Below are positions 10,728 through 55,509 of a DNA stretch of 64,000 bases, one piece after another. The notes beneath the pieces are model-generated. The model had not been told where the DNA came from, did no database searches, and saw nothing but the letters and a program-made list of their open reading frames with translations. This DNA comes from Candidatus Saccharimonadales bacterium. Lineage in GTDB: Bacteria > Patescibacteriota > Saccharimonadia > Saccharimonadales > JBBQAJ01. The translations under genes were made by a program, and so were the position numbers. Positions within the stretch are counted from its first letter, which is position 1. Every line of letters starts with the position of its first letter. The stretch is taken from assembly GCA_038316195.1 (NCBI GenBank), contig JBBQAJ010000002.1, positions 86,773 through 150,772 on the forward strand. The letters are read 5' to 3'.

Positions 10728-10732
10728 ACTAA

Positions 10733-12232
10733 CTAAGCTAGTACCTTAAGTGCTTCAGTTTTAGGTTTGTCTTTAACGTCAGTTTTGTTTTTATGTGAAA
10801 TATTTTTTACCTTTTTTGCTGCGTTTCCGATATCTATTGGGTAAATGCCGTTGAAGCATGATGTTGAAAAAATGTTTTCTGATAATTTTGTTGCACGTAT
10901 CATGCCTTCGTAAGATAAAAAGTATAAAGAATCAGCTTCAATATATTCACAAATTTCATCTACATTTAATCTTGCAGAGATTAAATCATCTTGGTCAGGT
11001 GTATTTATACCGTAAAAATCGGGATATTTAACAGGGGGACAACTTATGACTACATGTATTTCTTTTGCGCCTGCTTCTCTTATCATATGTACAACCTGGC
11101 GCATAGTTGTTCCTCGTACTATAGAATCGTCAACAAGTACGACTCGCTTACCAGATATGCTTTCATTAACAGGGTTTAGTTTCATTTTTACATCTCTTCT
11201 TCTCATTTCAGCAGTAGGTTGGATGAATGTTCTGTGTATGTATCTGTTTTTTACAAGTCCCATATCAAAAGGCGTATTAGTTGCTTCAGCATAGCCAATT
11301 GCTGCAGGTATTGATGAATCGGGCACAGGGATAACTACGTCAGCTTTTACAGCATGCTCTTTGGCTATTTCCGCGCCAAACCTTTGACGAACGCTATTGA
11401 CTCGTTGACCAAGTAAAACGCTATCTGGTCGCGCAAAATAAACGAATTCGAATATATCCAGTTTTTGATTGCCAGGAACGATTTGTTCAGATTTTATTCC
11501 GTTTTTGTCAATTATAACCATTTCTCCTGGTAATACATCTCGTACATATTTGGCACCTATTGTTTCAAAGGCACAAGTTTCGGATGAAACTATATATGCA
11601 TCATTCATTTTTCCAATTGAAAGTGGCCTTATTCCACATTGGTCGCGAAAAGCAATAAGCTTATCTTTGTCCATTGCTACAGCAGAAAAAACTCCCTGAA
11701 ACAGGGGGTATGCGCTTTTAATTGCTTTTTCTAGTACTTGGCCCTTCGCAATGAAAATATCTATTGCCACAGCCATCATATGTGAGTCGTTTAAATGGTC
11801 TGTCACTACATTGTTTTTCTGAAGAAATTTAACTAACGAATCAGTGTCAGGTAAGTTGCCATTATGTGCAAATGCAAACGATTTATCTAGGTTAATGATG
11901 GGCTGGTTGTAGTTTTCGCGTGCATCACCTGAAGTTGCATATCGATTGTGGCCGATCGATATATATCCAGGTAAATTGTCTAAATCTTCTTCACGGTATA
12001 CATTCGCAACTAATCCATTGGCTGCGTGTCGATAGATTTTTTCCCCATCGGAGCTGGCTATGCCAGAACTTTCCTGACCTCTGTGTTGGAGTGCCCAAAG
12101 TCCGTAATAAGTAATACGTGCTGCTTCGTTATTTGGCCCAAAAATGCCAAATACGGCACACTTTTCTGTGAGGGCGTGATTACCTGCCATGTTTTTTTGA
12201 TAAATAAGTAATAGAGACTTGGTTCTTCCCAT
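10733..12232 (-). CDS. purF: amidophosphoribosyltransferase
   Basis: Ntn-type CAVFGIFG preceded by a short propeptide, and PRTase motif VLVDDSIVRGTT. The real start may be the internal ATG at 12190 (MAGNHALTEK-C...); neither start has a clear SD. Confidence 0.93.
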   Translation of the reverse strand: MGRTKSLLLIYQKNMAGNHALTEKCAVFGIFGPNNEAARITYYGLWALQHRGQESSGIASSDGEKIYRHAANGLVANVYREEDLDNLPGYISIGHNRYATSGDARENYNQPIINLDKSFAFAHNGNLPDTDSLVKFLQKNNVVTDHLNDSHMMAVAIDIFIAKGQVLEKAIKSAYPLFQGVFSAVAMDKDKLIAFRDQCGIRPLSIGKMNDAYIVSSETCAFETIGAKYVRDVLPGEMVIIDKNGIKSEQIVPGNQKLDIFEFVYFARPDSVLLGQRVNSVRQRFGAEIAKEHAVKADVVIPVPDSSIPAAIGYAEATNTPFDMGLVKNRYIHRTFIQPTAEMRRRDVKMKLNPVNESISGKRVVLVDDSIVRGTTMRQVVHMIREAGAKEIHVVISCPPVKYPDFYGINTPDQDDLISARLNVDEICEYIEADSLYFLSYEGMIRATKLSENIFSTSCFNGIYPIDIGNAAKKVKNISHKNKTDVKDKPKTEALKVLA

Positions 12233-12296
12233 CTGTACATATCATACCATTTACGCTTTTATGTGCAAGTATTATGCAAAAGAAAATAAATGGATT

Positions 12297-13142
12297 TTAG
12301 GATGTTTGAGCAGATAATATTGTTTGTTGCAAAAGTAGTGCAGTTGTAACTGGTCCAACCCCACCTGGTACAGGTGATAATGCCCCTGCTTTATATTGTA
12401 CTGACAGACTATCAACATCACCAACCAAACTTCCATCTTCCGATGCATTTGTTCCTACGTCTATGACAATAGATCCTTTTTTAACAAATTCAGCTGTAAT
12501 CATCTTTGGTTTCCCGATCGCAACTATAAGTATGTCAGCTTGGCTTGTTATTGCGCTCAGATTACGTGTTTTTGAATGGCAAATTGTGACAGTTGCATCT
12601 TTTGACAATAATAGCTGAGCTAAGGGCTTGCCAACAATCATACTTCTGCCAATAATCACAGTATGAGTACCTGCAACTGGCACGTCATATCTGTTTAAAA
12701 TCTCCATTACTGCCACTGCAGTTGTTGGTGAAAAAGCTTCTATACCACTGACAACTCGACCTGCGCTCAAAGGGTTCGCGCCATCTACGTCTTTATCTGG
12801 TGGAATTAGCCCTCGCAAGGCGTTCGCGTCTGACCCAGGAGGTAATGGAGTTTGCAAAATAATTCCATGAACACTTGAGTCAACAGCCAAGCGCTTAATT
12901 TCATTTGATATCTCTTCATCAGACGCGTCCGACTTTAATCGAACAACATCAACTTTAACATCCGTTTTTTCACCAGCGCTTACAATGTGGCGAACGTAAT
13001 AATCTGTACTGTCATCGTCAGTTGCAACTACTACGGCTAAGGTTGTAATTATACCTTTAGATTTTAAATATTTTGAAGATTTTAAAATGCTTTCACGAAT
13101 CTCAAATGCCAAACTTTTACCACTTAACACTTCCACGCTCAT
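12297..13142 (-). CDS. folD: bifunctional methylene-THF dehydrogenase / methenyl-THF cyclohydrolase
   Basis: 281 aa with GRSMIVGKPLAQLL and PVPGGVGPVT motifs. Confidence 0.9.
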   Translation of the reverse strand: MSVEVLSGKSLAFEIRESILKSSKYLKSKGIITTLAVVVATDDDSTDYYVRHIVSAGEKTDVKVDVVRLKSDASDEEISNEIKRLAVDSSVHGIILQTPLPPGSDANALRGLIPPDKDVDGANPLSAGRVVSGIEAFSPTTAVAVMEILNRYDVPVAGTHTVIIGRSMIVGKPLAQLLLSKDATVTICHSKTRNLSAITSQADILIVAIGKPKMITAEFVKKGSIVIDVGTNASEDGSLVGDVDSLSVQYKAGALSPVPGGVGPVTTALLLQQTILSAQTS

Positions 13143-13762
13143 GAGTTCTCCATTTTATCTCGTACATTTTCAATTACCCCATCGGCATCCTGGATAGCAT
13201 CTGTTGCATCTTCAATTGATGCTATTAATTTGCTTCTTATAGTTTCATCTTCAATTGAGAACATGTTAATTTCTATATTTATTATTGCTGACTCTAATGC
13301 AGCTTTGGCCAAAGAAGCTCCCACAGCTACATCAGAAATTACATTTGGATTACCTTTTTCGGCAAGTTCTACAGCAAGAGCAATAGTATTCGCGGCTAAA
13401 AGTGCTGTCTTGATTGGTGGTTTTGTGGCGTTGAGTAGAGCCGTCTGAATTGCTAATTTTCGCTTGGATTTTTCAACGTCAGTATCTTTGGGTAATTTAT
13501 AGGCGCTGCCCACTGTATTAAATGCCGCAGCATCTTCATCAATAAGGCCTAAGCCCTGTGATCGAATTTTGCTCAGTTCAAAGCCAATTATATTCATTCT
13601 AGCTTCAACGTCCTGCCATTTTTGACCTGTAGTATACGCTGCAACCATGCCCAATTGAGCAGCAGAAATTGCCAATGATAGTGCTGCAACTGCCCCACCA
13701 CCAGGAGTAGGACTTTTTGCTGCCAATTCTTCTAGCCAGCCAGACATCTCTATAGCATGCAT
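13139..13762 (-). CDS. cyclodeaminase/cyclohydrolase family protein (FTCD C-terminal domain, FchA-like)
   Basis: LAAKSPTPGGGAVAALSLAISAAQLGMVA is typical of the formiminotransferase-cyclodeaminase C-domain. Overlaps folD by 4 nt. Confidence 0.7.
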   Translation of the reverse strand: MHAIEMSGWLEELAAKSPTPGGGAVAALSLAISAAQLGMVAAYTTGQKWQDVEARMNIIGFELSKIRSQGLGLIDEDAAAFNTVGSAYKLPKDTDVEKSKRKLAIQTALLNATKPPIKTALLAANTIALAVELAEKGNPNVISDVAVGASLAKAALESAIINIEINMFSIEDETIRSKLIASIEDATDAIQDADGVIENVRDKMENS

Positions 13763-14259
13763 TATGAGTTGCCTTTTGATTGTACGTTTGTGTCGATTTT
13801 TACGACTTCATCATGCATTTTTTTACGGTACTCTGCGTATCTTTGTGCTAGATTACTGTCTAACAAACCCAAAATTTCAACTGCCATTAGTCCAGCATTT
13901 TTAGCCCCATTTTCAGGCATAACAGAAAGTGGCACCCCAGGTGGCATTTTTATACTAGACCACAATGCCTCATGGTCTTCTGGATTTCTTTTAATTGGCA
14001 CTGCTAGTACAGGTAGCAGGGTTTCAGAAGCTGTCATGCCAGGCAAATGTGCTGAACCACCTGCACCAGCAATTATGACTTTGAGGCCTCTTGAGTATGC
14101 TTCTTGAGCATACGCTGTCATAACATCGGGAGTTCTATGAGCAGAAACTATTCGCATCTCGTTTACGACTCCAAATTCGTCCAAAATTTTGCTTGCTTCC
14201 GCCATGATGTCCATGTCTGAGTCTGAGCCCATAATTATGCCTACTAGTGGATTTGCCAT
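13762..14259 (-). CDS. purE: N5-carboxyaminoimidazole ribonucleotide mutase (class I PurE)
   Basis: VGIIMGSDSD, SAHRTP and GGSAHLPGM motifs. A purK is present in the same locus. Confidence 0.9.
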   Translation of the reverse strand: MANPLVGIIMGSDSDMDIMAEASKILDEFGVVNEMRIVSAHRTPDVMTAYAQEAYSRGLKVIIAGAGGSAHLPGMTASETLLPVLAVPIKRNPEDHEALWSSIKMPPGVPLSVMPENGAKNAGLMAVEILGLLDSNLAQRYAEYRKKMHDEVVKIDTNVQSKGNS

Positions 14260-14919
14260 CTAAGTCTCCTCTATTATTTGTATTATCTCATGTAATGAAT
14301 GAACAAGCACATCCGGTTTTGCTGCCTTTAATCTTTTTGTTGAATTGTAGCCTCCTGTAATTGAAACTGTTTTTAACCCCATGCTTTTGCCAATTTGAAT
14401 TTCTTCAATCGTATCACCAACAATTATTGCCGAGGATGGGTTGATGCCATTTGATTTTATATATTCTTCAAGCCGATGTTGCTTGCCTTTAAAATGTGCC
14501 CCATCTAGAACATCATTTGCTAGTATTGAATCAAAATATGTTGATAATTTGAGACGTTCGAGCTGAAAATATATTCCTTCAACTGTGTGGTTGCTGAGTA
14601 TAATTTTAGAATATCCTTTTGTATCAAGAGATTTTAGTGTTGTTCTTGCGCCAGATCTTGTCCGGGCTCGTGCAACTCGAGGTTCATAGAATGAATGAAA
14701 TGCTTTTGCCATTTCTGTAGATTTTTCTCTAAATAATTCTTTGCTAACTCCAAAATGTTTGTAGAATTTTGCCATTGGGACTTCAAAAAGTCTCTGATAA
14801 TCTCTAACTGTAATTGGTGGCAACCCAAGAACCTGCAATTCTTTGTTTGTGCCTTCAACCACAGGCCCCGTGTCTGCAAGTAGTGTCCCATTCCAGTCAA
14901 AAATAACGAGTTTAATCAT
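14260..14919 (-). CDS. HAD-superfamily hydrolase with atypical motif I (DWNGT)
   Basis: VIFDWNGTL (motif I), ILSNHT (motif II), KGKQ (motif III Lys), VGDTIEE (motif IV). Packed between purE and purK with 0 and 4 nt junctions. Confidence 0.7.
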   Translation of the reverse strand: MIKLVIFDWNGTLLADTGPVVEGTNKELQVLGLPPITVRDYQRLFEVPMAKFYKHFGVSKELFREKSTEMAKAFHSFYEPRVARARTRSGARTTLKSLDTKGYSKIILSNHTVEGIYFQLERLKLSTYFDSILANDVLDGAHFKGKQHRLEEYIKSNGINPSSAIIVGDTIEEIQIGKSMGLKTVSITGGYNSTKRLKAAKPDVLVHSLHEIIQIIEET

Positions 14920-16046
14920 ATTACTATCGAGGCTCTGGCTTTAAGTGCTTTATCTTTTGCTTCTTTTATAGTTCTTCCAGTGGCAGTTATATGACCCATT
15001 TTGCGATCAATTTTAGTAGGAGATTTACCATAAAGGTGTATATGAACATCAGGAGTATTTTCAAGATTTGTGTCACTAGTTACGAGCGTTTCACCGTCCC
15101 TTTCGCCCAATATGTTTATCATTACAGCGGCAGGTACTATCATTTCTGTTGAGCCTAATTCCATACCTGTAATTGCTCGTATGTGTTGATCAAACTGTGA
15201 AGTTTTGCAAGCTTCTATAGTGTAGTGGCCACTATTGTGAACTCTAGGTGCAATTTCATTTACTAGCACCTTCCCGTCTGCAGTTAAGAACATCTCAATA
15301 CCAAATGTTCCTACGCTATTTAATTTGCGTACTACCATTTTTGCTAAATCTTCCACTTTTTTAGTAATACCCTTACCAATGTCGGCAGGTGTTTGAGTTT
15401 CTATGCAAATGTTCCTATCATGAAACGTTTCAGTAACTGGAAATTTTTTTATGTTCCCCTCAGTACTCATGGCGACCATAACTGCGAGTTCTTTGCTAAA
15501 TGGAACGAAAGCTTCGGCGTACAATTCCCTACCTTCAAATTGTTTTAATGCTACCTTGAGTTCTTTCAGGTTTGTTACTACTGCATTCCCACGTCCATCG
15601 TATGCGCCATGTTTTGCCTTAATCAACATCTTGTTTCCAAAATATTTTAGTGCCTCTTTTGCTTCAGATTCAGATTTAATATCTCTAAAATCAGCTACTG
15701 CAAAGCCGTTTTTATGTAAAAATATTTTTTGATTATATTTATCTTGAATCAGTTTAATTACTTCTGGTCTAGGAAAAATATTTTTGTTTTTGGCTATAAT
15801 TTTTAAAGCATCGGCGTTTAAATGTTCAATCTCGATTGTTATTAAGTCTGTAACTTTTGCCAGGTGTTCCAGCGCTGTTTGATCATACAGGTCTCCAATA
15901 ATTTCCTGAGCACCTACCTGAGATGCAGGAGAATTATCTGATGAGTTTAATACCACAACTTTGAAATCTAGTTTGACTGCGGCCTGAGTTAGCATTCTTC
16001 CTAATTGCCCGCCACCGACTATACCTATAGTTTTTGACTGCCTCAT
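14916..16046 (-). CDS. purK: N5-carboxyaminoimidazole ribonucleotide synthase
   Basis: IGIVGGGQLGRM N-terminus, ATP-grasp core, 376 aa. Confidence 0.9.
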   Translation of the reverse strand: MRQSKTIGIVGGGQLGRMLTQAAVKLDFKVVVLNSSDNSPASQVGAQEIIGDLYDQTALEHLAKVTDLITIEIEHLNADALKIIAKNKNIFPRPEVIKLIQDKYNQKIFLHKNGFAVADFRDIKSESEAKEALKYFGNKMLIKAKHGAYDGRGNAVVTNLKELKVALKQFEGRELYAEAFVPFSKELAVMVAMSTEGNIKKFPVTETFHDRNICIETQTPADIGKGITKKVEDLAKMVVRKLNSVGTFGIEMFLTADGKVLVNEIAPRVHNSGHYTIEACKTSQFDQHIRAITGMELGSTEMIVPAAVMINILGERDGETLVTSDTNLENTPDVHIHLYGKSPTKIDRKMGHITATGRTIKEAKDKALKARASIVI

Positions 16047-16092
16047 TAACGTATATCTTAACTCAATAAGGTGTTAAAATACATATACAAAG

Positions 16093-17049
16093 ATGGCAAC
16101 TATAGATAAAACTAATTTTGATTTCCTAGGACAAATAGCTTTTCATCATGGTAAAGTGCGAGATTTGTATGATTTAAACGACAAGATAGTTTTTGTTACA
16201 TCTGATAGATACTCAGCTTTTGACAGAATTCTTGCATCGGTTCCACATAAAGGTGAACTTTTGACAGCGATTACCTTGTGGTGGTTCGAACAATCAAAAC
16301 ACATTATAAAAAATCATATAATTTCAAGCCCAGACCCAAACGTGTTAATTGTAAAAAAGTATAAAGTGATACCAATAGAAATGGTAGTGCGAGGATACAT
16401 CACAGGAGTAACTAATACTTCGCTCTGGCATAATTATAGTAACGGTCAAAGAAATTTTGGAGATTTTACACTACCTGAAGGATTACGTAAAAACCATAAA
16501 TTACCCAGTCCAGTGTTTACCCCAACGACTAAATTTGAAGAGCATGACAGACCCCTTACGCCACAAGAAGCTGTTGAAGAAGGATTAGTTAGCCAAGATA
16601 TTTGGGATAGTCTACAAAAAATCGCGTTAGAATTATTCACATTTGGTCAAAAAATCGCTGCTGAAAATGGTTTAATTTTAGTAGATACTAAATACGAATT
16701 TGGATTAGACGAAAACGGCAAAATTATTTTGATCGACGAAATCCACACCCCTGATTCTTCCAGATATTGGTCGGCAGATAGTTATAAGCAAAGTATTATT
16801 GAAGGTGTCGAACCAGAAAATTATGACAAAGAGTTTCTGCGCCTGTGGTTCAAAGAAAGATTTGATCCATATATGGATAAAGAAGCACCTGAACCATTTC
16901 CAGAAATTATTACTGAGCTTTCCAATAGATACGTATATGTTTATGAGCATTTGACAGGTAAGAAGTTTATACCTACAAATGACTCAGAAGATGTACTCAA
17001 AAGAATTGAATCAAACGTAACCAAAGAGTTAGAGAGGCTAAAAAAATGA
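16093..17049 (+). CDS. purC: SAICAR synthase (long form)
   Basis: GKVRDLY, SDRYSAFD and LVDTKYEFG motifs; 318 aa. Confidence 0.9.
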   Translation: MATIDKTNFDFLGQIAFHHGKVRDLYDLNDKIVFVTSDRYSAFDRILASVPHKGELLTAITLWWFEQSKHIIKNHIISSPDPNVLIVKKYKVIPIEMVVRGYITGVTNTSLWHNYSNGQRNFGDFTLPEGLRKNHKLPSPVFTPTTKFEEHDRPLTPQEAVEEGLVSQDIWDSLQKIALELFTFGQKIAAENGLILVDTKYEFGLDENGKIILIDEIHTPDSSRYWSADSYKQSIIEGVEPENYDKEFLRLWFKERFDPYMDKEAPEPFPEIITELSNRYVYVYEHLTGKKFIPTNDSEDVLKRIESNVTKELERLKK

Positions 17050-18440
17050 ATCCAATTACATTACCAGATCCACCAAAAGAGCAAAATTTTTATTCGATTG
17101 ATCCACTTGATGGTCGATATTATGACTCTGAAGTTACAAAATATTTATCTGAATCGAGTCGCATAGTTTACCAGGCATATATAGAATCTGCTTTAGCACT
17201 TTCACTTTCTGAGCAAGGAATATGTAGCAAAGATGTTGCTAAAGAGATTGAGAGATCGGCTTGTAAAATAACGGCCGAAGAAGTGGCAAAAGAAGAACAA
17301 TTGACTAAGCATGATGTTAAGGCACTTGTGAACTGTATTAAAAAGGGCGTAAGTGATGACGCGAAACCATTTGTGCATTTCGGTGCAACATCATATGACA
17401 TTGTTGCCAGTGCATCTGCATTGCAGTTAAGAGATTTTATTCAAAAAGTAATTATCCCCCGCCAAAAAGCACTTGTCCAAACACTTATTAAAATAGCTGA
17501 GGAGCATGCTGAAACTGTGCAGATTGGTAGAACGCATGGTCAGCACGCTGTTCCAATTACTTTTGGGTTTGCAATTGCTGAATATGTACAGCGATTAGGT
17601 TCGAGTGCTAGATCACTGGATGTATTGAGTAGTAAATTAGTCGGAAAATTTTCCGGTGCAGTTGGGGCATACAATGCACTGAGTATATTTGTGGATGATC
17701 CAATGGCATTTGAAAAATCTGTACTTAACAAAGTTGGACTAGAGCCTGCTGAATATTCAACTCAGATTGTTCCTGCTGACTCTACGGTTAGACTCATGGC
17801 TGAATTAACAGTTTCATCGGGAATTATGGCAAACCTTGCTCATGACATGCGGCATTTACAGCGAAGCGAAATAGCTGAAACACGGGAAAAATTTGAAGTC
17901 GGCCAAACCGGGAGTTCTACTATGGCACACAAAAGAAATCCATGGAACTTTGAAAATGTAGTGAGCATGAGTAAGCAAGTATTATCACAAAGTGTAAACG
18001 CTTTCCAAAACCTATCTAGTGAACACCAACGAGATTTAACAGATTCCGCTTCCGCTAGATTCTACACAATTGCTTTTGCAAGTGTAGCTTCAATGGCAAA
18101 ACGTTTAGATGAAATTATGAATAAATTAGAAGTTGACACTGAAGCTATGCAAAATAATCTCAAACAAAGTGGGGGTGCAATTGCAGCTGAACCTCTATAC
18201 TTGTTGTTTGAAAAGTATGGCCACACACAAGCTCATGAAAAATCAAAAGTCCTTTCTCATAAGTCACTAGAAGAAAATACTTCATTAGTAGAAGTAATTA
18301 TTTCAGATCCTGAAGCGTCTGAATTTTGGGAAAAATTTACAGATAAAGAAAAGCAAATAATTGAAACTCCAGAAATCCATTATATTGGGTTAGCCGCACA
18401 AAAAACACGTGAAATAGTATCTAAATGGAAATCTAATTAG
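17046..18440 (+). CDS. purB: adenylosuccinate lyase
   Basis: Fumarate-lyase signature GSSTMAHKRNP; 464 aa. Overlaps purC by 4 nt. Confidence 0.9.
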   Translation: MNPITLPDPPKEQNFYSIDPLDGRYYDSEVTKYLSESSRIVYQAYIESALALSLSEQGICSKDVAKEIERSACKITAEEVAKEEQLTKHDVKALVNCIKKGVSDDAKPFVHFGATSYDIVASASALQLRDFIQKVIIPRQKALVQTLIKIAEEHAETVQIGRTHGQHAVPITFGFAIAEYVQRLGSSARSLDVLSSKLVGKFSGAVGAYNALSIFVDDPMAFEKSVLNKVGLEPAEYSTQIVPADSTVRLMAELTVSSGIMANLAHDMRHLQRSEIAETREKFEVGQTGSSTMAHKRNPWNFENVVSMSKQVLSQSVNAFQNLSSEHQRDLTDSASARFYTIAFASVASMAKRLDEIMNKLEVDTEAMQNNLKQSGGAIAAEPLYLLFEKYGHTQAHEKSKVLSHKSLEENTSLVEVIISDPEASEFWEKFTDKEKQIIETPEIHYIGLAAQKTREIVSKWKSN

Positions 18441-19566
18441 GATTAAATCTTAACCATGGTTCCTGAGCTTTATTTAGTCCCTGATTTGCAATTTTAATTT
18501 GGGGTTCCTGAGTTATCTCGCCGATAATTTTGGCTTGAATGTTATGAGCCCTCGCTATTTTGATAGTCTCGTCCGGGTTTGGAGTTATTATTGCCATTCC
18601 CTGTCCCATGTTCCAGGTGCGATATGCTTCTTCGTCAGATACTCCACCTATTTTTTGGCAAAATGTCATTAATTGTGAAGGTTCATAAGTATTGCTAATA
18701 TTCGCTCCTAAACCCGAAGGCTTTAGAACTCTGCCCAATTTACCAGGTAAGCCACTACCGGTTATGTGGGCTACTCCGTGGAGTTCGACTTTAGGTGAAA
18801 TCCCCGGATCCGCTCCACCGAACATCTCTACCACAGATTTGCTATAAATAATTGATGGTTCGAGGGCCATATCAATTAGTTTTTTCCCATCCAATATCTC
18901 ACTTGTCCAGTTGTTACCGTATTTGTCATAGAGTACCTTACGAAGTAATGAAAAGCCATTAGAGCGAAACCCAGGTTCTTGAAAACCAACAATGCTGTCT
19001 CCAACTTCTACTTTGTGACCAGTAATCATCTTGTCTTTGTGGGCAAACCATACAAGTGCTGAGCCCCAGTTGAAGCCAAATTTATCACCACCACCTACTA
19101 AGTTTCCGAGTTGTGCTACTTCGCCATTTATAATTGCTACATTTGCCTCGTTAGCAGCCTTTATGTAGCCGTTAGCGAGCTGTTGAACAGCTTCGAGTCG
19201 TGATTCATCTTGCCCAAGCGAGTTAGTGTCCAGAATAGATCCAAGTAAGACTGGTTCTGCTCCTCGTACGACTGCGTCATCACAAACCATAGCAACTAAG
19301 TCATATCCTAAAGTGTCGTATTTGCCGGATAGCATTGCTAGTTCTGCTTTTGTACCTATGCCGTCAAACCCAATATTTAACATAGTTCCAGTTGGTAAAT
19401 TACCAACATTAATTGCTCGTATTCCTGAATAATCATCGAACGGTACTATAACTTCACCGAGTGTCCCTTTGCGACCCTGCCAAGTTTGTTTTGCAGCTTG
19501 ATACATAATCTTAGCCGCTTGTTCTTCAATATTTACGTCAACTCCAGAATCCGAATATGTAGTCAT
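18433..19566 (-). CDS. purM: phosphoribosylformylglycinamidine cyclo-ligase (AIR synthase)
   Basis: GFDGIGTK motif and AIRS N/C domain order; 377 aa. Confidence 0.9.
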   Translation of the reverse strand: MTTYSDSGVDVNIEEQAAKIMYQAAKQTWQGRKGTLGEVIVPFDDYSGIRAINVGNLPTGTMLNIGFDGIGTKAELAMLSGKYDTLGYDLVAMVCDDAVVRGAEPVLLGSILDTNSLGQDESRLEAVQQLANGYIKAANEANVAIINGEVAQLGNLVGGGDKFGFNWGSALVWFAHKDKMITGHKVEVGDSIVGFQEPGFRSNGFSLLRKVLYDKYGNNWTSEILDGKKLIDMALEPSIIYSKSVVEMFGGADPGISPKVELHGVAHITGSGLPGKLGRVLKPSGLGANISNTYEPSQLMTFCQKIGGVSDEEAYRTWNMGQGMAIITPNPDETIKIARAHNIQAKIIGEITQEPQIKIANQGLNKAQEPWLRFNPN

Positions 19567-19618
19567 TGTATGCTCAAGTATATATGTTTTTTAACTTCTC
19601 AAGAAGTATAAAAAATAT

Positions 19619-21301
19619 TTAATGACCAAAAAAACCTCGTCCTATTTTGTCTGGAACAAGCATTAGACTCACTCCTGCGTCCGTTAAAGCAGGGATAACA
19701 ATTTTATCATTTATTGATCCACTAGAGGTCAAAATAGCTTTTACGCCAGCATCTGCCAATATCATTGGACCGTCTGGAAATGGGAAAAAGCTATCACTAT
19801 AAGCAACAGAACCGTCCAGTTTTGTTTTACTTAATTTTATTTTCATCAATATGTTTCCATTTGTATTTTCCATTTCTGGTAGTTCGATCGTTGTACGTTG
19901 CAGAGCTAGTTGTGCAGCTCCAATACGGTCTTGTTGCCCAACGCCGTTGCCAATTACCATGCCGTTTTTAGCAAGAGTTATAGTGTTGCTATTACTCGTA
20001 GCCCCAACTCCCCAAGCTAAAATAAAATCTTTTTTTTGCTGATCACTAATTTTGCCGAAGGTATCCATGTAATCAGCAGACAAATTCATGATAAATGTAT
20101 AATTGTCCTGTTCAACAACTCCTCCACGAACGTAACGAAATCTTCTGCGTGAATCTAGGGAATTTTTGGTTAAATTTGCTAATGCAGGGTTTGTGACCAC
20201 TCGCATTTTTTTACGACTAAGCATTTCTAACGCTTCTTTAGTTACATCTGAACCAACAACCCCATCTAAAGTTCGTTTGTAGTTGTGGTCCATAAGATAA
20301 TTCATGAGAGCTTCAGCTACATCAGCATCAATAATGCCATTAGTCATCACTACGCCACCAAAAATAGCACGTGTATCACCTTCGAGCATTTTACGTACTG
20401 CTTCGGCATGGGTTTTTGCCACCCCTGCTCCACAAACATTGCCGTGTTTTACCCCGGCTGCAAGTGGAGGCACTTCTCCAAAGTTTAAATCAAAACCAGC
20501 GGCTATGTGCGTAGTAGTTTGGACCAGTCTATCGATGTCAGTTTCATTTATATAGCTTTTTTCCCAACCTTTGACATGCTTGAACTGATCAATACCAAGT
20601 GGGTCTATGTCTACGCGGTTGTCGGCATATACACCAGCAGTTGTATGTTGGGGACTTTCACCATATTTTGTTCGTGAGTGCAGTCTTGCTATATGTCCAC
20701 TAACCCCAGTTTCGTCTAGGTTTTTGGCAATTTGCATGTAATAACGGGTAGTTTCATAAAATGCTATTGCAGCGAGTTTTTGTTTAAATTCTTCTTCATC
20801 TGGTTTACCATCACGGAGCCAATTGAGTATTTCTGGACGTTGATCGGCTCTTGAAAGTACAATTCGACCCGATTTGGCTGCACCATTAAGCATGGTTGGA
20901 CCACCAATGTCTATTTTTTCTATTATACTTGCCTGCGTTGCTTTGGGGTCTGCGATTTCTTCTTCTAGTGGATATAAATCTACACATACAAGACCAAATA
21001 AAGGTATTTCTTTGTCTTCTAGGTCTTTTAAATGTTCTGGCTTGGATGTATTTGCCAGAATTCCACCATGTACTTTGGGGTGGAGCGTTACGACTCGGTG
21101 GTCTAGCATTGCACCCCAACCAGTAAGGTCAGCTAAGTCGTGGACTGGAATTTTTGCATCATTTAATTGCTTGTACGTGCCTGTAGTGGAAAATAAGGTC
21201 CATCCCAAGTCAATCAATCCTTTAGCAAATTCTTCTATATCGGTTTTGTCGTAAACTGATATCAATGCATTTTGCACACCAAAAACCTGAGCCACTAGCA
21301 C
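19619..21301 (-). CDS. purH: bifunctional AICAR transformylase / IMP cyclohydrolase
   Basis: N-terminal MGS-like domain (ALISVYDK, STTGT) and C-terminal AICARFT domain (VKHGNVCG, VVTNGIID). Only GTG starts are available. The GTG at 21295 has the best spacing to a GGGGGA SD-like run. Confidence 0.93.
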   Translation of the reverse strand: MLVAQVFGVQNALISVYDKTDIEEFAKGLIDLGWTLFSTTGTYKQLNDAKIPVHDLADLTGWGAMLDHRVVTLHPKVHGGILANTSKPEHLKDLEDKEIPLFGLVCVDLYPLEEEIADPKATQASIIEKIDIGGPTMLNGAAKSGRIVLSRADQRPEILNWLRDGKPDEEEFKQKLAAIAFYETTRYYMQIAKNLDETGVSGHIARLHSRTKYGESPQHTTAGVYADNRVDIDPLGIDQFKHVKGWEKSYINETDIDRLVQTTTHIAAGFDLNFGEVPPLAAGVKHGNVCGAGVAKTHAEAVRKMLEGDTRAIFGGVVMTNGIIDADVAEALMNYLMDHNYKRTLDGVVGSDVTKEALEMLSRKKMRVVTNPALANLTKNSLDSRRRFRYVRGGVVEQDNYTFIMNLSADYMDTFGKISDQQKKDFILAWGVGATSNSNTITLAKNGMVIGNGVGQQDRIGAAQLALQRTTIELPEMENTNGNILMKIKLSKTKLDGSVAYSDSFFPFPDGPMILADAGVKAILTSSGSINDKIVIPALTDAGVSLMLVPDKIGRGFFGH

Positions 21302-46533: not shown

Positions 46534-46540
46534 TTAGTAT

Positions 46541-46561
46541 TGATGTATTTATCTTACATCA
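46541..46561. promoter_or_regulatory. perfect inverted repeat TGATGTA-N7-TACATCA in the divergent region upstream of purP
   Basis: 7-bp arms at 46541-46547 and 46555-46561, located between the flavodoxin-like gene start and the purP promoter candidate. Confidence 0.3.
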
Positions 46562-46564
46562 AAT

Positions 46565-46593
46565 TTGGGTGCAATCCTTGTAAAGTGTATAAT
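46565..46593 (+). promoter_or_regulatory. candidate extended -10 promoter for the purP pair
   Basis: TGTATAAT (TGnTATAAT) at 46586-46593, with TTGGGT 17 nt upstream at 46565-46570. GAAGG SD lies before the ATG at 46634. Confidence 0.4.
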
Positions 46594-46633
46594 TACATGA
46601 AATATCAGGACTATTACTTATTAAGTCAGAAGG

Positions 46634-47659
46634 ATGATAATGCAAAAGGCAGATATAGATTTCAAGATTGGTACCCTAGGTAGCCATTCAGCGCTGCAAA
46701 TTCTCAAGGGTGCCAGAGATGAAGGATTTTCAAATGTAGTATATTGTCTTGATTCAGCTTCAGTCCCATATCGTTCTTATAAAGTTGCAGACAACATTGT
46801 CGAACTAAGCAAGTATTCTGATATTTTAGGATATGAACAACAAATGATTGATGAAAATGTAATATTGATACCTCATGGTTCATATTTTGATGCATATGGG
46901 TTAGAAGCATTGAATAAATCAAATGTTATGTATTTTGGGAATAAAAAGATTTTGGCACTAGAAGAAGACAGAGGATTGCAAAGAGATTGGCTGTCACAAG
47001 CTGGGCTAACTTTACCCAAAATATACGAAAGCCACAAAGACATTGATGGTCCAGCAATAATTAAGTTTTTTGGAGCAAAAGGTGGTAAGGGATACTTTTT
47101 AGTTAAAACCCCTGACGAGTTTGAGCGTAAAATAAAAGATCACCCCAACAGGCGTTTTATAATTCAACAATATGTTGTCGGTGCGCCTTTGTATATTCAC
47201 TATTTCTACTCTCCCCTTACAAAAGAACTAGAAATTATGAGCTTAGATAGGCGTTATGAAACAAACGTGGATTCGATTGGTCGTATTGGTGCAAAAGATC
47301 AATTAGATATGGATATAGAATCTTCATATAATATTATGGGTAATTTAACAGTTGTCGTTCGCGAATCATTATTGCCCAAAATGTTTGCTATGGGTGAAGC
47401 AGTCGTGAAAACTTCGCAGGATTTAGTTGATAGGGGCTTGTTTGGGCCATTTTGTCTGGAAACTATTGTCACACCCGACTTGGAGTTTTATGTTTTTGAA
47501 ATCTCAGCTCGTATTGTAGCTGGAACTAACCCATATATAAAAGGGTCACCATATACTGACTTACGTTATGATGAACCCATGAGCACTGGCCGAAGAGTTG
47601 CAAGAGAAATCAAGAATGCTGTCGAGGAAAATAGATTAAAAGAGGTACTAAGTGATTGA
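46634..47659 (+). CDS. purP: archaeal-type 5-formaminoimidazole-4-carboxamide ribonucleotide (FAICAR) synthetase, PurP family, copy 1
   Basis: IGTLGSHSALQILKGARDEGF, IPHGSYFDAYG, FGNKKILALEEDRGLQRDWL, IIKFFGAKGGKGYFLV, YIHYFYSPL...EIMSLDRRYETNVD. These match my recollection of the DUF1246 plus DUF1297 ATP-grasp PurP family. Confidence 0.8.
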   Translation: MIMQKADIDFKIGTLGSHSALQILKGARDEGFSNVVYCLDSASVPYRSYKVADNIVELSKYSDILGYEQQMIDENVILIPHGSYFDAYGLEALNKSNVMYFGNKKILALEEDRGLQRDWLSQAGLTLPKIYESHKDIDGPAIIKFFGAKGGKGYFLVKTPDEFERKIKDHPNRRFIIQQYVVGAPLYIHYFYSPLTKELEIMSLDRRYETNVDSIGRIGAKDQLDMDIESSYNIMGNLTVVVRESLLPKMFAMGEAVVKTSQDLVDRGLFGPFCLETIVTPDLEFYVFEISARIVAGTNPYIKGSPYTDLRYDEPMSTGRRVAREIKNAVEENRLKEVLSD

Positions 47660-48770
47660 TGTTAGTAAAATTTTAGAGAATTATGACAAGAAAAACATCA
47701 GAATTGGCTCGTTGGGTGGCCATAGCGCATTAGATATTTGTAGGGGTGCTAAAAATGAAGGATTTGAAACAGTCGTTGTGGCGCAAAAAGGTAGACAGGA
47801 TACGTATTCAAAGCATTATAAAACTAGAGGCGACAAAGGTTGCGTGGATCACGTTATAGTCGTAGACAAATTCTCTGATGTTACTAAACCTGAAGTTCAA
47901 GAACAGTTGCGTAAATTAAACGTAATTTTCATACATAGTAGATATTTTTGGGTTTATTGTGATTATAAAGAAGTAGAAAATAGCTTTAATGTGCCAATAT
48001 TTGGTAATCGTCAGCTCGTAAGAAAAGAGGAGCGAAATGAAGAAAAAAATCAATACTTCCTCTTGCAACAGGCTGGATTAAATATTCCTAAACAATTTTC
48101 AAGTCCAAGCGAAATAGATCGATTAGTATTCATTAAAGCTGCAGAAGCGTCGCGTGGATATGAACGTGCTTTTTTCCTAGCAAGTAGTGAACAAGAATAC
48201 CTAAGGGAATCTAAAAAGTTAGTAGACCAAGGAGTAATAACTCCAGAATCTTTGAAAGAAGCCGTTATAGAAGAATTTGTTGTTGGACCACAACTTAACC
48301 TTAACTATTTCTATTCGCCACTGGATGATGAAGTAGAGCTTATGGGAACAGATACTCGTCGTCAAACAAACATTGATGGCTTATTAAGGCTGACTGCCCC
48401 AGAGCAAATCGAAGCCCTTAAACATGTACGACCAAAATATATTGAAAACGGTCACCAGGCTGTAACAATTAAAGAATCACTTGTCGAAAAAGCTTTCAAA
48501 GCAGGTGAAGCTTTTGTAAATTCAGTTGCCAAACACTACCCTCCTGGTATGATTGGACCATTTGCTTTACAGGGTGCAATTACTGCTGGTCCACCAACTG
48601 AAGAATTGCTGGTTTTTGATGTTAGCATGCGCATTCCTGGAAGTCCTGGTACGCAATTTACGCCGTATTCTGGTTATCTACATGGAGAAAACATGAGTTA
48701 TGGACGACGAATTTCTCAGGAAATTAAACGAGGAATTTTAGAAAATCGTATTGAAGAATTGCTTACTTAG
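47652..48770 (+). CDS. PurP-family ATP-grasp protein, divergent copy 2
   Basis: IGSLGGHSALDICRGAKNEGFETVVV, FGNRQLVRKEERNEEKNQYFL, LNYFYSPLDDEVELMGTDTRRQTNID. The Gly-rich loop is replaced by VFIKAAEASRGYERAFFLA. GTG start with an AGAGG SD; overlaps copy 1 by 8 nt. Confidence 0.72.
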   Translation: MIDVSKILENYDKKNIRIGSLGGHSALDICRGAKNEGFETVVVAQKGRQDTYSKHYKTRGDKGCVDHVIVVDKFSDVTKPEVQEQLRKLNVIFIHSRYFWVYCDYKEVENSFNVPIFGNRQLVRKEERNEEKNQYFLLQQAGLNIPKQFSSPSEIDRLVFIKAAEASRGYERAFFLASSEQEYLRESKKLVDQGVITPESLKEAVIEEFVVGPQLNLNYFYSPLDDEVELMGTDTRRQTNIDGLLRLTAPEQIEALKHVRPKYIENGHQAVTIKESLVEKAFKAGEAFVNSVAKHYPPGMIGPFALQGAITAGPPTEELLVFDVSMRIPGSPGTQFTPYSGYLHGENMSYGRRISQEIKRGILENRIEELLT

Positions 48771-50086
48771 CGAATAATTGTTTCGTTGCCGGCCGGCCCT
48801 GTACCAATGATAGTTATCGGTACGCCCACAAATTTTTCAATAAATTCTATTATGTTTTTAATTTCTTGATTAAGTTTATTAAATTCAGTTATCCCGTTTA
48901 TGTTAGCGCCAGTTGGCATTTTCTTATAGATTGGCTGACATCTACTTAGTTGATTGGCAGAGTCCGGAAGTGTGTTTATCTCTACCCCGTCTAATTCATA
49001 TGCAACTGCAATGCAAGTCAGGGACTCTCTGTTTAATACATCTGCTTTAGTTAGTGCGATCTCATCAATGCCATTAACAGCTACAGCTTCCTTTAACAGT
49101 ACTAAGTCCATATATCCAATGTCCCGAGGCCTTTTTGTAGTTTTCCCAAATTCACCATCAACATTTTGCATTTTACCTCGATACAAAGAAGCAATTTTTT
49201 CATCTGTAATTTTTGTAACAAATGGTCCACCACCAACTTTTGAAGGTATAGCTTTTACGACGCCTATAACTTTTCCTATTTGCCGGTGATTTAGACCGAC
49301 ACCAGTTGCAACACCAGACGCAGTAGTTTCAGACGATGTTACGAAAGGATATTTACCATGGTTTATATCTAGTCCAAAAGCTTGTGCACCTTCTAACAGA
49401 ATGTTTTTATTAGATGCTAATTTTTTGCGCACAAGTATCTTTGTGTTAGTTAAGTAAGGTTCAATCTCTTTGGCGGCTTTGGCAAAATCTTTAGCTTGAT
49501 CTTTAAATAATGCCTCAGTTTTAGAATCAATTATTACACCACATTGTATAGCAGCTTGGCGTAACCCATCATAAGCAATGGATGTTAGCTCTTTTACTGA
49601 TTTGGCGAAGTCGTGTGCCCTAATGCCAGTTCGTAGCACTTTATCCGATGCTACAAATGAAATTCCGGATTTAGTACTACCTTGGCCGTCTTTACTATTT
49701 TCTCTGTGAGCGTCTAGAAACTTGTGTTTGGGGAATACAACATGTGCCGTAGTACTGATAGCAAGATTTTTAGGAGATATTTCTAGACCAATATTTCTAA
49801 CTGTCGCAATTTCTTGCAACAAACTCACTGGATCCAAATACATACCATGCCCCATGATATTTAGCGTAGATTTGTTAGTTATTCCTGAGGGCAATTGATG
49901 TGTATTTACTTCCTGACCTTTAAAAGTAAACGTATGTCCAGCATTCGCACCACCTTGCCCACGACAAACAACATCAAATTGAGAGGAAAGTACATCAATT
50001 ACTTTTCCCTTGCCTTCATCGCCATATCCTGTGCCAACTATTATTGTGGTTTGTGAGTCTTTTTGTTTGTCTGTAGATTGTGGCAC
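48767..50086 (-). CDS. purA: adenylosuccinate synthetase
   Basis: GTGYGDEGKGK, GGANAGHT and TTKRPRD; 439 aa. Confidence 0.95.
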   Translation of the reverse strand: MPQSTDKQKDSQTTIIVGTGYGDEGKGKVIDVLSSQFDVVCRGQGGANAGHTFTFKGQEVNTHQLPSGITNKSTLNIMGHGMYLDPVSLLQEIATVRNIGLEISPKNLAISTTAHVVFPKHKFLDAHRENSKDGQGSTKSGISFVASDKVLRTGIRAHDFAKSVKELTSIAYDGLRQAAIQCGVIIDSKTEALFKDQAKDFAKAAKEIEPYLTNTKILVRKKLASNKNILLEGAQAFGLDINHGKYPFVTSSETTASGVATGVGLNHRQIGKVIGVVKAIPSKVGGGPFVTKITDEKIASLYRGKMQNVDGEFGKTTKRPRDIGYMDLVLLKEAVAVNGIDEIALTKADVLNRESLTCIAVAYELDGVEINTLPDSANQLSRCQPIYKKMPTGANINGITEFNKLNQEIKNIIEFIEKFVGVPITIIGTGPAGNETIIR

Positions 50087-50089
50087 CGT

Positions 50090-51382
50090 TTAATACCTGT
50101 AGTGGTCTGCTTTGAAAGGGCCATTTTTGGGAACACCCAAATATTCAGCTTGTGTGTCTGTAAGAGTTGTAAGTTTTGCATTGAGCGCCTTAACGTGGAC
50201 TGCTGCGACTTTTTCGTCGAGTTCTTTTGGTAAGCGATGTACGCCAATTTCATAATTTTTAGTGTATATTTCAATTTGAGCTAAAACTTGATTAGAGAAA
50301 GAGTTAGACATGACAAACGAAGGGTGTCCAGTTGCATTGCCCAGGTTAACTAATCGGCCTTCTGAAAGCACAATTAATCTACGACCGTTTGGCATTGTGT
50401 ACAAATCTACTTGAGGTTTTATTTCTTCTTTTTTTATGTCTTTAAACTCATTCAACTCTTTAATTTGAATTTCATGGTCAAAATGGCCAATATTACAGAC
50501 AATCGCGGTATCTTTCATCTGTTTCATGTGGTCTATTGTAATGATGTCTTTGCAACCAGTCGCAGTCACAAATATTTCAGCTTGTGGTGCAGCTTCATCC
50601 ATTGTTACAACTTCGTAACCTTCCATGAGCGCTTGTAATGCACAAATTGGATCTATTTCGGTTATGAGTACTCTACAACCGAATGCACGAAGCGATTGAG
50701 CACTTCCTTTACCTACGTCACCATAACCAGCTACAACAGCAACTTTGCCGGCAAGCATAACATCTGTTGCTCTTTTGATACCATCAACTAAGGATTCTCT
50801 ACAACCATACAAATTGTCGAATTTTGATTTAGTAACACTGTCATTCACATTTATGGCTGGTAGCTTGAGTTTACCGGCTTTAAACCATTCGTTAAGCTGT
50901 TTTACTCCCGTGGTAGTTTCTTCAGTTATGCCTTTGATTTCTGGCAATAGCTCTGGGTGTTTATCATGCACCAAGGCTGATAAATCACCACCATCATCCA
51001 AAATCATATTTGGACCAAGGTCTCCAAATTTTAAAGTTTGTTCAACGCACCACCAATATTCATCCTCTGTTTCGCCTTTCCAAGCAAATACTGGTGTTCC
51101 TGCTGCCGCGATGCCGGCTGCTGCGTGATCTTGTGTAGAAAATATATTACAAGATGACCAGCGCACTTCTGCACCTAGCTCCTGCAAGGTTTCTATTAGT
51201 ACAGCAGTTTGAATAGTCATATGTATAGAGCCTGCAATTCGGGCACCTTTAAGTGGTTTTGTTTCCCCAAATTCATTTCTTAGAGACATGAGGCCAGGCA
51301 TTTCGTTTTCTGCTAGTGTTATTTCTGTCCTACCCCAGTTAGCTAAATTTATGTCTTTTACTTTATAATCTTTTTCTGGCAT
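50090..51382 (-). CDS. ahcY: S-adenosyl-L-homocysteine hydrolase
   Basis: [22 protein letters not shown] and GYGDVGKG; 430 aa. Confidence 0.95.
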
Positions 51383-52332
51383 TAAAGTTCAATCTCCCTA
51401 TTAAATGTTTTTTTATAACGATCCAATATTGCTGCTTTAGAATATACAACTTGTGTCCCGTGCTGCTCTAGAACAAATGATGCCAATACTGCTCCAAGTT
51501 GACCACACTTTAGCAGCTCCCATTGTCGCAAGTATCCGTATAAAAAGCCAGCTCGATATGCATCCCCTGCACCACTGGGATCGACTGCTTTGTTTGGTTT
51601 CGCGACGCCAATTTTTATAGGTATTTTTATTGATGACCCTTCAATAACTGAACCATACTTACCGAGTGTCGTTACCACAATTTTTGTTTTTGTTTTAATG
51701 CCGTTATCTGACAAATTTGTTCGATTGCAGAACACTCCATATTCATAATCGTTGAGCATTAAAATTTCAGCAGCTTGAAAACCTGCTATTAAGTCTTCTT
51801 TAGAAACATTGCTAACTTGTTGACCAGGATCATACAGCATTCTCATATTGTTTTTATTGGCTTCTTTTACTTGTGATGCCATGGTTTTTGGATCATGAGC
51901 AGATATACTGATGAAAACATCTTTCCCCGACCAAAGTTTTAAGGATAGTGATTTAGAATCCGACATTGCACCAGAGTAAAAACCACCAACTTGATTATGG
52001 TCAACATCGGTAATAACGTTAAAAGTTGCAGTTGGTAATTTGCTTTGATGTATATGATCAACATTTATCCCAACATCGGATAATTTTTTGATATAGTTAC
52101 TCGCGTCAGGACCAACTGAACCATACAATATGGGTTTTTCTCCAAGCTGGGCATAATTAAATGCTATATTTGCCCCAACACCACCATATGTGTCCACGAG
52201 ATCATCAAGCAAAATACTTAGTGAAAGTACGTGAAGTTTTTTAGGGTGAATCATTTCAGCATATCGACCAGAAAAATTCATAATTCGGTCAACAGCGATG
52301 GACCCACAAATAACGAGTTTTGGATATGGCAT
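51382..52332 (-). CDS. PfkB-family nucleoside/sugar kinase (adenosine-kinase-like by context)
   Basis: GGVGANIA and [21 protein letters not shown] stop/start overlap with ahcY. Confidence 0.7.
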
Positions 52333-54798: not shown

Positions 54799-54836
54799 TA
54801 GTGGTATGTTAGTACGAAGTTAACTGTAGAACAACC

Positions 54837-54866
54837 TTGACAGCAAAGAACAAATGCAGTTATGCT
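54837..54866 (+). promoter_or_regulatory. candidate leaderless promoter for the 54873 ATG
   Basis: TTGACA (54837-54842), 18 nt, TATGCT (54861-54866), 6 nt, ATG (54873). An overlapping TATAAT at 54867-54872 abuts the ATG. No SD. Confidence 0.3.
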
Positions 54867-55484: not shown

Positions 55485-55509
55485 AATTACTTCGGGTTTA
55501 AAAATCTAA

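Follow-up and report, generated by a model that had tools for sequence, protein, structure and literature searches.

Within a 64,000-nt stretch of the genome of a Candidatus Saccharimonadales bacterium (contig JBBQAJ010000002.1; the whole stretch is referred to as the window), we identified two adjacent genes for archaeal-type PurP proteins, at positions 46634 to 48770. They appear to represent a conserved module, one protein of cluster Ib and one of cluster II, in Saccharimonadales, which belong to the Candidate Phyla Radiation (also called CPR or Patescibacteria). We lean, by no means firmly, toward the view that this archaeal-type module is a two-subunit, formate- and ATP-dependent formylase of 5-aminoimidazole-4-carboxamide ribonucleotide (AICAR) that works in parallel to the bifunctional enzyme PurH. 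Our confidence is high for the identity and evolution of the pair, as read from its sequence and relatives, and moderate for the mechanism. The features of the locus are as follows.

46634..47659, plus strand: purP copy 1, ATP-grasp protein of cluster Ib ("PurP II") type, 341 aa
47652..48770, plus strand: purP copy 2, ATP-grasp paralog of cluster II ("PurP III") type, 372 aa, GTG start
47641..47659, plus strand: coupling junction, read directly from the sequence
46534..46633, between divergent genes: 100-nt intergenic region separating an FMN_red gene (minus strand) from copy 1, defined by position only

An earlier note on this DNA had described two translationally coupled open reading frames (ORFs) of these lengths, and we confirmed both ORFs, their positions, and their plus-strand orientation. 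Coupling is backed by an 8-nt overlap, with the GTG of copy 2 at 47652 and the TGA of copy 1 at 47657-47659, and by a Shine-Dalgarno-like AGAGG at 47641-47645, inside the 3' end of copy 1 and 6 nt before the GTG. The true start of copy 1 is probably the second ATG, at 46640, because of the spacing to an AAGG and because orthologs are 339 aa long; this start would give a protein of 339 aa. At the other end, the stop of copy 2 overlaps that of the convergent purA by 4 nt. GC content does not shift between the pair and the sequence around it. The intergenic region upstream of copy 1 is presumed to hold the promoter of the bicistron; scanning there and on the far side of the pair for promoter and terminator consensus sequences yielded as many hits as expected by chance. 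The divergent gene at 45793-46533 (minus strand) encodes an FMN_red-family flavoprotein, which also neighbors the pair in five of the related loci described below (L001, L002, L003, L005, and L010).

Both proteins match Pfam DUF1246 (N-terminal) and DUF1297 (C-terminal) over their full length, with E values from 2e-35 to 5e-71. The best PDB match of copy 1 is PF1517 of Pyrococcus furiosus (2R84, 1e-105), and the closest to copy 2 is MJ0136 of Methanocaldococcus jannaschii (2R7K, 2e-82). These matches lie far beyond chance, and the profile and structure searches agree with the assignment of both genes to the PurP family in the earlier note. The motifs it quoted were FFGAKGGKGYF in copy 1, AAEASRGYERAFF in copy 2, and YFYSP...TN.D and FGN in both, all of which are present; the exception is GSHSAL, which in copy 2 reads GGHSAL.

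Archaeal PurP-like proteins were split by Brown et al. (2011) into cluster Ia/Ib and cluster II, and many archaea have one gene of each cluster, often adjacent (PMC3261824). Cruz et al. (2019) renamed these groups PurP I (Ia), PurP II (Ib), and PurP III (cluster II), along with a PurP IV (PMC6486802). In the numbering of MJ0136, used throughout, clusters Ia and Ib are diagnosed by a P-loop, (K/R)GG(K/R)G at positions 161-165, and by Asn258. In proteins of cluster II the corresponding loop is two residues longer and charged, with few glycines, and position 258 is always His; His27 and Arg314, which contact the formyl group, are 100% conserved in both clusters (PMC3261824). Copy 1 has a GAKGGKG P-loop, Asn258, and every signature residue common to MJ0136 and PF1517. 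It is 52% identical to PF1517 (Ib) and 45% identical to MJ0136 (Ia), and a neighbor-joining tree places it with PF1517; by these sequence criteria we assign it to cluster Ib. Asn258 occurs in all 66 cluster I proteins of the tree alignment, MJ0136 and PF1517 included. Copy 2 carries the loop EASRGYERAFF, 2 aa longer than that of MJ0136, and has His at position 258. Both traits occur in all 82 aligned cluster II proteins (81 from related loci plus copy 2) and in the representatives at 50% identity, and we assign copy 2 to cluster II.

The two copies share 35% identity. Both keep His27, Arg228, Asn232, Glu265, Ser266, and Arg314, and His27 and Arg314 are found in 120 of 120 orthologs of each. 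Copy 2 has in addition an alternative set of residues (G26, N210, Q230, K264, and D310) that is fixed in 120 of 120 CPR orthologs and present in 81 of the 82 aligned cluster II proteins, the remaining one being without the first two positions. Mean p-distance is 0.358 for cluster II and 0.388 for cluster I, so that cluster II is at least as conserved. An AlphaFold2 (AF2) model of copy 2 (pLDDT 79.6, pTM 0.82) best matches MJ0136 PurP (2R7L/2R7K, TM-score 0.84-0.88), whereas the next folds outside PurP, PurK and biotin carboxylase, reach a TM-score of only ~0.5. Confidence is low in the altered loop and in the segment bearing the His, as would be expected in a model of mobile active-site loops. 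No cluster II structure was among the PDB matches. Because the alternative residues are fixed, conservation is no lower than in cluster I, and the PurP fold is kept in the model, copy 2 appears to be a constrained and functionally distinct paralog, not a decaying copy. The suggestion in the earlier note of a diverged or structural role for copy 2 fits the question that cluster II poses.

More than 120 ortholog clusters were found for each copy (at least 67% identity for copy 1 and at least 71% for copy 2), with both sets coming from the same contigs; copy 2 is 100% identical to NCBI protein P0121. Orthologs of copy 1 are named formate--phosphoribosylaminoimidazolecarboxamide ligase at NCBI, those of copy 2 only DUF1297 domain-containing protein. 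The family is small: clustering 1.84 billion proteins at 50% leaves it with 601 representatives. A scan of GTDB with an 11-sequence cluster II alignment found a cluster II relative in at least 584 species representatives, across CPR and archaea. Locus, synteny, and tree analyses cover the best 80 of these loci, each with 10-kb flanks and with the taxon labels of the submitters, some of which are clearly wrong. Saccharibacteria rank first, at 67-80% identity. At 58-66% follow other CPR (Gracilibacteria and Peregrinibacteria/Peribacteria) mixed with DPANN archaea (Woesearchaeota, Nanoarchaeota, and Undinarchaeota), Thermoplasmatota, and a few oddly labeled metagenome-assembled genomes (MAGs). 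The labels of L014, L016, L023, and others clash with gene content or tree position: contigs labeled "Chlamydiae" and "Nevskiaceae" fall inside the Saccharibacteria clade, and many "Methanosarcinales" MAGs interleave with DPANN. Such MAGs are probably mislabeled or misbinned.

In nearly all CPR and DPANN loci (about 64 related loci) a cluster I gene lies immediately upstream of the cluster II gene on the same strand. The tandem usually falls within clusters of purine genes, in both domains, and often has an intact purH beside it. Overlaps of 1-17 nt between the two genes occur in every scored locus of the Saccharibacteria clade except one, and in this clade the pair adjoins purN/L/M/E/K/C/B or purA/guaA/pyrF. 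The sister archaea have the order purM-purL-purE-purC-purB-[I]-[II]-guaA. The Gracilibacteria/Peregrinibacteria clade has purH-[I]-[II]-purN in eight loci, and a ninth (L075) ends before purN. A search of a Saccharibacteria transposon sequencing (Tn-seq) paper and its supplements found none of these genes.

Several loci depart from the common arrangement. ORFs lying between the purP genes in DPANN loci encode EamA-like, HAD, HD, or unmatched ~240-aa proteins, and no PurO or IMP cyclohydrolase (IMPCH; IMP, inosine monophosphate) was found among them. In six of these loci (L030, L037, L063, L074, L078, and L082) the insertion is a recurrent same-strand ORF of ~230-250 aa that has no convincing Pfam match; these ORFs share 30-50% identity among themselves. 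In two Undinarchaeota/Naiadarchaeum loci (L042, 597-3823, and L062, 1515-3727) the order is reversed, cluster II then cluster I, and in the neighbor-joining tree their cluster I members fall with MJ0136 (Ia). On this placement they would be a combination of Ia and II absent from the 2011 and 2019 surveys. Two contigs of "Spirochaetota" MAGs (2.7 and 1.9 Mb) carry the pair in large, bacterial-looking, non-CPR surroundings (L069, 8979-11113, and L050, 8966-11116). There its neighbors are not pur genes, and instead include an ABC transporter (substrate-binding protein PRK11622, 532 bits) and an NhaD antiporter. The cluster I gene of L050 is split into ORFs of 134 and 156 aa, possibly a pseudogene, and its cluster II gene is intact.

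Trees of the two paralogs, computed by neighbor joining, are congruent (mirror-tree r = 0.67, Mantel p <= 0.001). Bootstrap support was as follows.

Saccharibacteria plus one Woesearchaeota/Nanoarchaeota subgroup: cluster II tree 100%, cluster I tree 98%
Saccharibacteria alone: cluster II tree 97%, cluster I tree 38% (weak)
Gracilibacteria/Peregrinibacteria as a separate clade: cluster II tree 6% (all 12 taxa) or 52% (9-taxon core), cluster I tree 100%
All CPR as one clade: cluster II tree 0%, cluster I tree 0%

The sister contigs are genuinely archaeal, with genes for the PCNA clamp, for a CCA-adding enzyme of the archaeal kind, and for an SMC of archaeal type (SMC_prok_A), all scoring above curated cut-offs. 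Between the window and this archaeal subgroup, identity is 61% for PurP I and 62% for PurP II, versus 47% for purB and purC, 37% for purE, and 27% for purM and purL. Between the window and Gracilibacteria/Peregrinibacteria it is 56-61% for the PurP proteins, 31% for purH, and 27% for purN. Because both paralog trees unite Saccharibacteria with an archaeal subgroup and PurP identity exceeds that of the flanking pur genes, the pair would seem to have been transferred long ago as a unit. These comparisons support transfer of the two-gene unit between domains on at least two occasions, followed by broad inheritance within CPR lineages, and suggest that the transfer is old and not specific to this genome. 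Outside CPR the family is archaeal, which makes transfer from archaea to CPR the more parsimonious direction. The ancestor of a broad Saccharibacteria clade would have acquired the unit from DPANN-type (Woesearchaeota/Nanoarchaeota-like) archaea, and the Gracilibacteria/Peregrinibacteria, a second CPR clade, would hold an independently placed copy. The earlier note had proposed an inter-domain transfer and had counted a broad, vertically inherited bacterial clade as evidence against it. The specific relationship to archaeal (DPANN) sequences holds, and a single private event does not: broad, largely vertical clades exist in both Saccharibacteria and Gracilibacteria/Peregrinibacteria. These partly match the contrary evidence that the note had named and push the transfer far back in time.

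The ninth step of purine synthesis, formylation of AICAR to FAICAR (5-formamidoimidazole-4-carboxamide ribonucleotide), is on paper covered twice in the window, judging from its genes. The second candidate for this step lies in a purine cluster at 4.9-21.3 kb.

19619..21301, minus strand: purH, full-length bifunctional AICAR formyltransferase/IMP cyclohydrolase, 560 aa (NCBIfam, Pfam, and motifs)
10035..10727, minus strand: purN-like formyltransferase (Pfam Formyl_trans_N; NCBIfam 101 bits, cut-off 150)
4924..19566, strand not specified: remainder of the purine cluster, with purL (large), purD, purN-like, purF, folD, fchA, purE, HAD, purK, purC, purB, and purM (NCBIfam scans)

PurH matches Pfam MGS and AICARFT_IMPCHas and scores 364 bits with NCBIfam PurH, below the cut-off of 402. 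It retains the Lys-His dyad of the AICAR formyltransferase (AICARFT) domain (VKHGNVCG), the IMPCH motifs DLYP, DIGGP, and AAK, and the motif FFPF. A full-length purH had been noted before, and we find both of its domains and the catalytic dyad in place; the purN reported with it is borne out as a purN-like gene that has the Pfam domain and falls below the NCBIfam cut-off. One IMPCH motif of PurH reads RVVTLHP, as against RVKTLHP in solved PurH/ATIC homologs (Lys to Val), with the other catalytic motifs intact. purH is the only recognizable IMP cyclohydrolase gene in the window. The purH genes beside the pair in the Gracilibacteria/Peregrinibacteria clade are also full length, with the motifs of both domains intact, and the PurH type of the window is widespread in Saccharimonadales, where it shares contigs of 776,748 bp and 118,866 bp with the pair. 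Because intact purH stands beside the pair in relatives and this PurH type lies on the same contigs, coexistence of the PurP pair and PurH appears to be a trait of the lineage. Co-occurrence of PurP with full-length PurH is known in 10 archaeal genomes (PMC6486802). A Saccharimonadales MAG (L021, 12123-13199) encodes beside its pair a 358-aa, AICARFT-only ("PurV"-like) protein that has the Lys-His dyad and is without an IMPCH domain; no recognizable IMP cyclohydrolase was found at that locus.

Within the family only cluster Ia (MJ0136) is a proven formate- and ATP-dependent FAICAR synthetase. By the second-hand account of two papers, PF1517 of P. furiosus (Ib) binds ATP and AICAR and is reported to have no formate-dependent activity alone, and PF0421 (cluster II) is reported to be inactive alone as a FAICAR synthetase (PMC3261824, PMC6486802). 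Every archaeal genome with Ib also has II, and because of this and of the inactivity of each alone, Cruz et al. proposed a heterohexamer of Ib and II (PMC6486802). Joint function is favored here because the two genes co-occur, were apparently transferred together, overlap, have congruent trees, are under equal constraint, and persist beside an intact PurH. We infer that the two genes are co-transcribed and translationally coupled and that their products act jointly, probably as a hetero-oligomer on the hexameric PurP architecture. The ATP-grasp pair would activate formate with ATP and formylate AICAR to FAICAR, after which the IMPCH domain of PurH would close the ring. This would provide a folate-independent route through the ninth step, parallel to the folate-dependent AICARFT domain of PurH. 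The cluster II protein may be either a catalytic or a noncatalytic partner.

A number of points weigh against a formate-dependent formylase. The reports on PF1517 and PF0421, the nearest characterized types, are negative for each protein alone. Neither copy reaches the NCBIfam equivalog cut-off for formate--AICAR ligase (400 bits versus 580 for copy 1 and 322 versus 556 for copy 2). A bypass of folate is not obviously needed where intact PurH, purN, folD, and fchA are present, and family scans of the window revealed no formate-producing gene. As to physical association of the two proteins, Thermoplasmatota loci have cluster II without a cluster I gene within 10 kb, and in many DPANN loci the pair is split by 100-1600 nt or by an unrelated ORF. 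The trees are neighbor-joining only, and Saccharibacteria alone are weakly supported in the cluster I tree. Thus, of the label "formate-dependent FAICAR synthetase" that the earlier note gave to the genes, membership in the PurP family stands and the activity is a prediction, given the second-hand reports on the P. furiosus types and the sub-threshold NCBIfam scores.

An unlikely but creditable alternative is that the two proteins are independent enzymes, with copy 1 alone serving as a formate-dependent FAICAR synthetase and copy 2 catalyzing a different ATP-grasp reaction of the same pathway. Candidates for the latter are formate-dependent formylation of glycinamide ribonucleotide (GAR), as by an analogue of PurT, and an ATP-assisted ring closure of FAICAR to IMP. 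Brown et al. speculated that such a ring closure could stand in for the missing IMP cyclohydrolase of Crenarchaeota and Pyrococci, and Archaeoglobi lack purN and purT yet have Ib and II (PMC3261824). Retained in cluster II are the residues that contact the formyl group (His27 and Arg314), those on the phosphate side (Arg228 and Ser266), and the general nucleotide-binding ones (Lys in VIVK, the EEF hinge, Gln297, and Asp310). Its remodeling is invariant and concerted, both in the Gly-rich loop and facing the aglycone (N258H, H210N, and E230Q), and selection on it is as strong as on cluster I. The purH-[I]-[II]-purN order of Gracilibacteria/Peregrinibacteria puts folate-dependent formyltransferases on both sides of the pair. 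However, the strict 1:1 co-occurrence of Ib and II in archaea (PMC6486802), their co-transfer, and the gene overlap suit interdependence better, and PF1517 alone is reported to be inactive although its active site is that of MJ0136. This genome has both PurN and the IMPCH domain of PurH, and therefore requires neither extra activity, and in the loci analyzed PurO or IMPCH is never inserted in the pair. The specific claim that cluster II is a catalytically distinct purine ATP-grasp enzyme, such as a GAR formyltransferase that uses formate or a cyclase that turns FAICAR into IMP with the help of ATP, we regard as a long shot. If true, the CPR/DPANN module would be a portable, folate-independent replacement of both formylations or of both PurH activities. 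The PurP III question, open since 2008-2011, would be resolved, and the missing enzyme of Crenarchaeota, Pyrococci, or Archaeoglobi perhaps identified.

A purine role that does not rely on free formate and AICAR is improbable as well. The pair could use another one-carbon or acyl donor, or its main task could be the conversion of imported AICAR or AICA-riboside to IMP by salvage. Such a donor was reportedly suggested for PF1517 by Zhang et al. The binding of ATP and AICAR by PF1517, reported without formate-dependent activity (PMC6486802), is consistent with this. Several relatives with small genomes have the pair next to purA, guaA, pyrF, or ahcY and a PfkB nucleoside kinase, not with de novo genes, a setting reminiscent of Korarchaeum, where the pair occurs and the de novo pathway is missing (PMC3261824). 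Against it, the formyl-contact residues are invariant in both paralogs, many loci, among them those of the sister archaea and of further Saccharimonadales, have the pair directly within de novo pur operons, and the genome studied here has the full pathway.

Were copy 2 a decaying product of recent tandem duplication, arisen locally from an archaeal gene that this genome alone had acquired, the adjacency and shared domain architecture of the copies would be accounted for. This reading is already refuted by their 35% identity, by the separate orthologs of each, spread over more than 120 clusters (identity 67-90% for copy 1 and 71-100% for copy 2), by a cluster II signature fixed family-wide, and by separate congruent trees that include archaea. 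The description of the genes as tandem paralogs in the earlier note is accordingly right as to paralogy and adjacency and does not extend to local duplication, the two belonging to ancient classes whose adjacent pairs are known in archaea (PMC3261824). Least credible, and very unlikely indeed, is an assembly or binning artefact in which archaeal DNA was fused into a chimera with a bacterial genome or sorted into its bin: some public MAG labels of related loci are clearly unreliable ("Chlamydiae," "Nevskiaceae," and "Methanosarcinales"), but the pair has bacterial genes on both sides within the 64-kb window, whose GC is uniform, the stop codon of copy 2 overlaps that of purA, and the synteny of zwf-gnd, MacB ABC transporter, FMN_red, the pair, ahcY, and PfkB recurs on independent contigs of up to 0.78-0.9 Mb.

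That the host is a bacterium, as previously noted, is evident from the bacterial-type genes of the window, which include GltX, DNA polymerase IV (DinB), a MacB-type ABC transporter, and WalK/PhoR-like kinases, and also zwf and gnd. The nearest named homologs of both copies are from Candidatus Saccharimonadales, Saccharibacteria, or Patescibacteria MAGs. Downstream of the pair are the following genes.

48767..50086, minus strand: purA (adenylosuccinate synthase), convergent with copy 2 (TIGR00184 385 bits, cut-off 395.55; NF002223 395 bits, cut-off 402)
50090..52332, minus strand: ahcY (S-adenosylhomocysteine hydrolase) and a PfkB-family, nucleoside-kinase-like gene, conserved neighbors of the pair in its closest relatives

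ahcY and the PfkB-family gene directly follow purA and the pair in the window, and directly follow the pair in L001, L002, and L006. A PfkB-type kinase could in principle phosphorylate AICA-riboside. Beyond them, at 52519-57699 (minus strand), are two genes for large sensor histidine kinases (WalK/PhoR-like, 759 and 729 aa) on the same strand; a 215-aa ORF on the opposite strand between them has no family match.

The genes at 4924-21301 form a near-complete de novo purine cluster in a Saccharimonadales genome, although CPR are usually summarized as being without nucleotide biosynthesis (e.g., PMC10633639). purL is a large, single-chain gene (1923 bits to PRK05297), and purN, purM, and purH are among those scoring below NCBIfam cut-offs. 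The PurM of the window (18433-19566) is only ~26% identical to that of three Saccharimonadales loci (L013, L017, and L021), whose purE, purL, and purK are 56-68% identical to those of the window. The comparison suggests that the window has a different PurM type or a xenologous replacement.

The closest known system is the archaeal pair of Ib and II (PMC3261824, PMC6486802; PF1517 and PF0421 of P. furiosus), which comprises the same two paralog classes by the published diagnostics. As here, there is one of each class per genome, with links to purine genes, and the pairs are adjacent in Sulfolobales, Pyrobaculum, and Korarchaeum. The host here is a CPR bacterium, whereas published surveys placed PurP in archaea only, and the overlap of the genes in Saccharibacteria, which suggests tight translational coupling, is unlike the archaeal pair. 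Cluster II of CPR and DPANN is a sub-variant with Gly26, Lys264, and Arg-Tyr or Ser-Arg at 93-94 (which of the two depends on the alignment), where other archaeal representatives have Ser26, Arg264, and Arg-Ser. MJ0136 (cluster Ia, EC 6.3.4.23, PDB 2R7K/L/M/N) has the fold and domain pair of both copies. It forms a homohexamer that functions by itself, and its hosts have one purP gene and lack PurH, unlike the two paralogs and intact PurH found here; copy 2 differs from it in lacking the Gly-rich loop and Asn258. By analogy, bacteria that have PurT alongside PurN also double a folate-dependent formyltransferase step with a formate-using ATP-grasp enzyme. That case concerns step 3, not step 9, and PurT is a single, well-characterized enzyme of another ATP-grasp family. 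Archaeal-type genes common to CPR and DPANN include those for form II/III RuBisCO and the AMP salvage pathway. These resemble the pair in that CPR sequences are interleaved with DPANN and occur in more than one CPR clade; the difference is that here a two-gene module of purine biosynthesis is involved.

Literature searches for PurP in CPR or bacteria found no paper describing the pair. It is known in archaea, and its presence in bacteria, though visible in database annotations, contradicts surveys of 2011, 2014, and 2019 that held PurP to be an archaeal signature absent from bacteria. The case is of interest but not unique to this genome. The module of clusters Ib and II is common in CPR, where it routinely occurs together with an intact PurH, and CPR share it with DPANN archaea, apparently as a unit transferred whole. 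This corrects the phyletic picture of PurP and adds a purine biosynthesis module to the list of gene exchanges between CPR and DPANN. Contrary to how CPR metabolism is usually summarized, the de novo purine pathway is complete in some Saccharimonadales. Persistence of the pair beside a functional PurH, the overlapping genes, and their coevolution point to a shared function that does not simply duplicate PurH. This sharpens the biochemical question of the roles of clusters Ib and II, and the bacterial versions, coming from mesophiles, should lend themselves more readily to expression and assay than the proteins of hyperthermophiles, for which results were negative.

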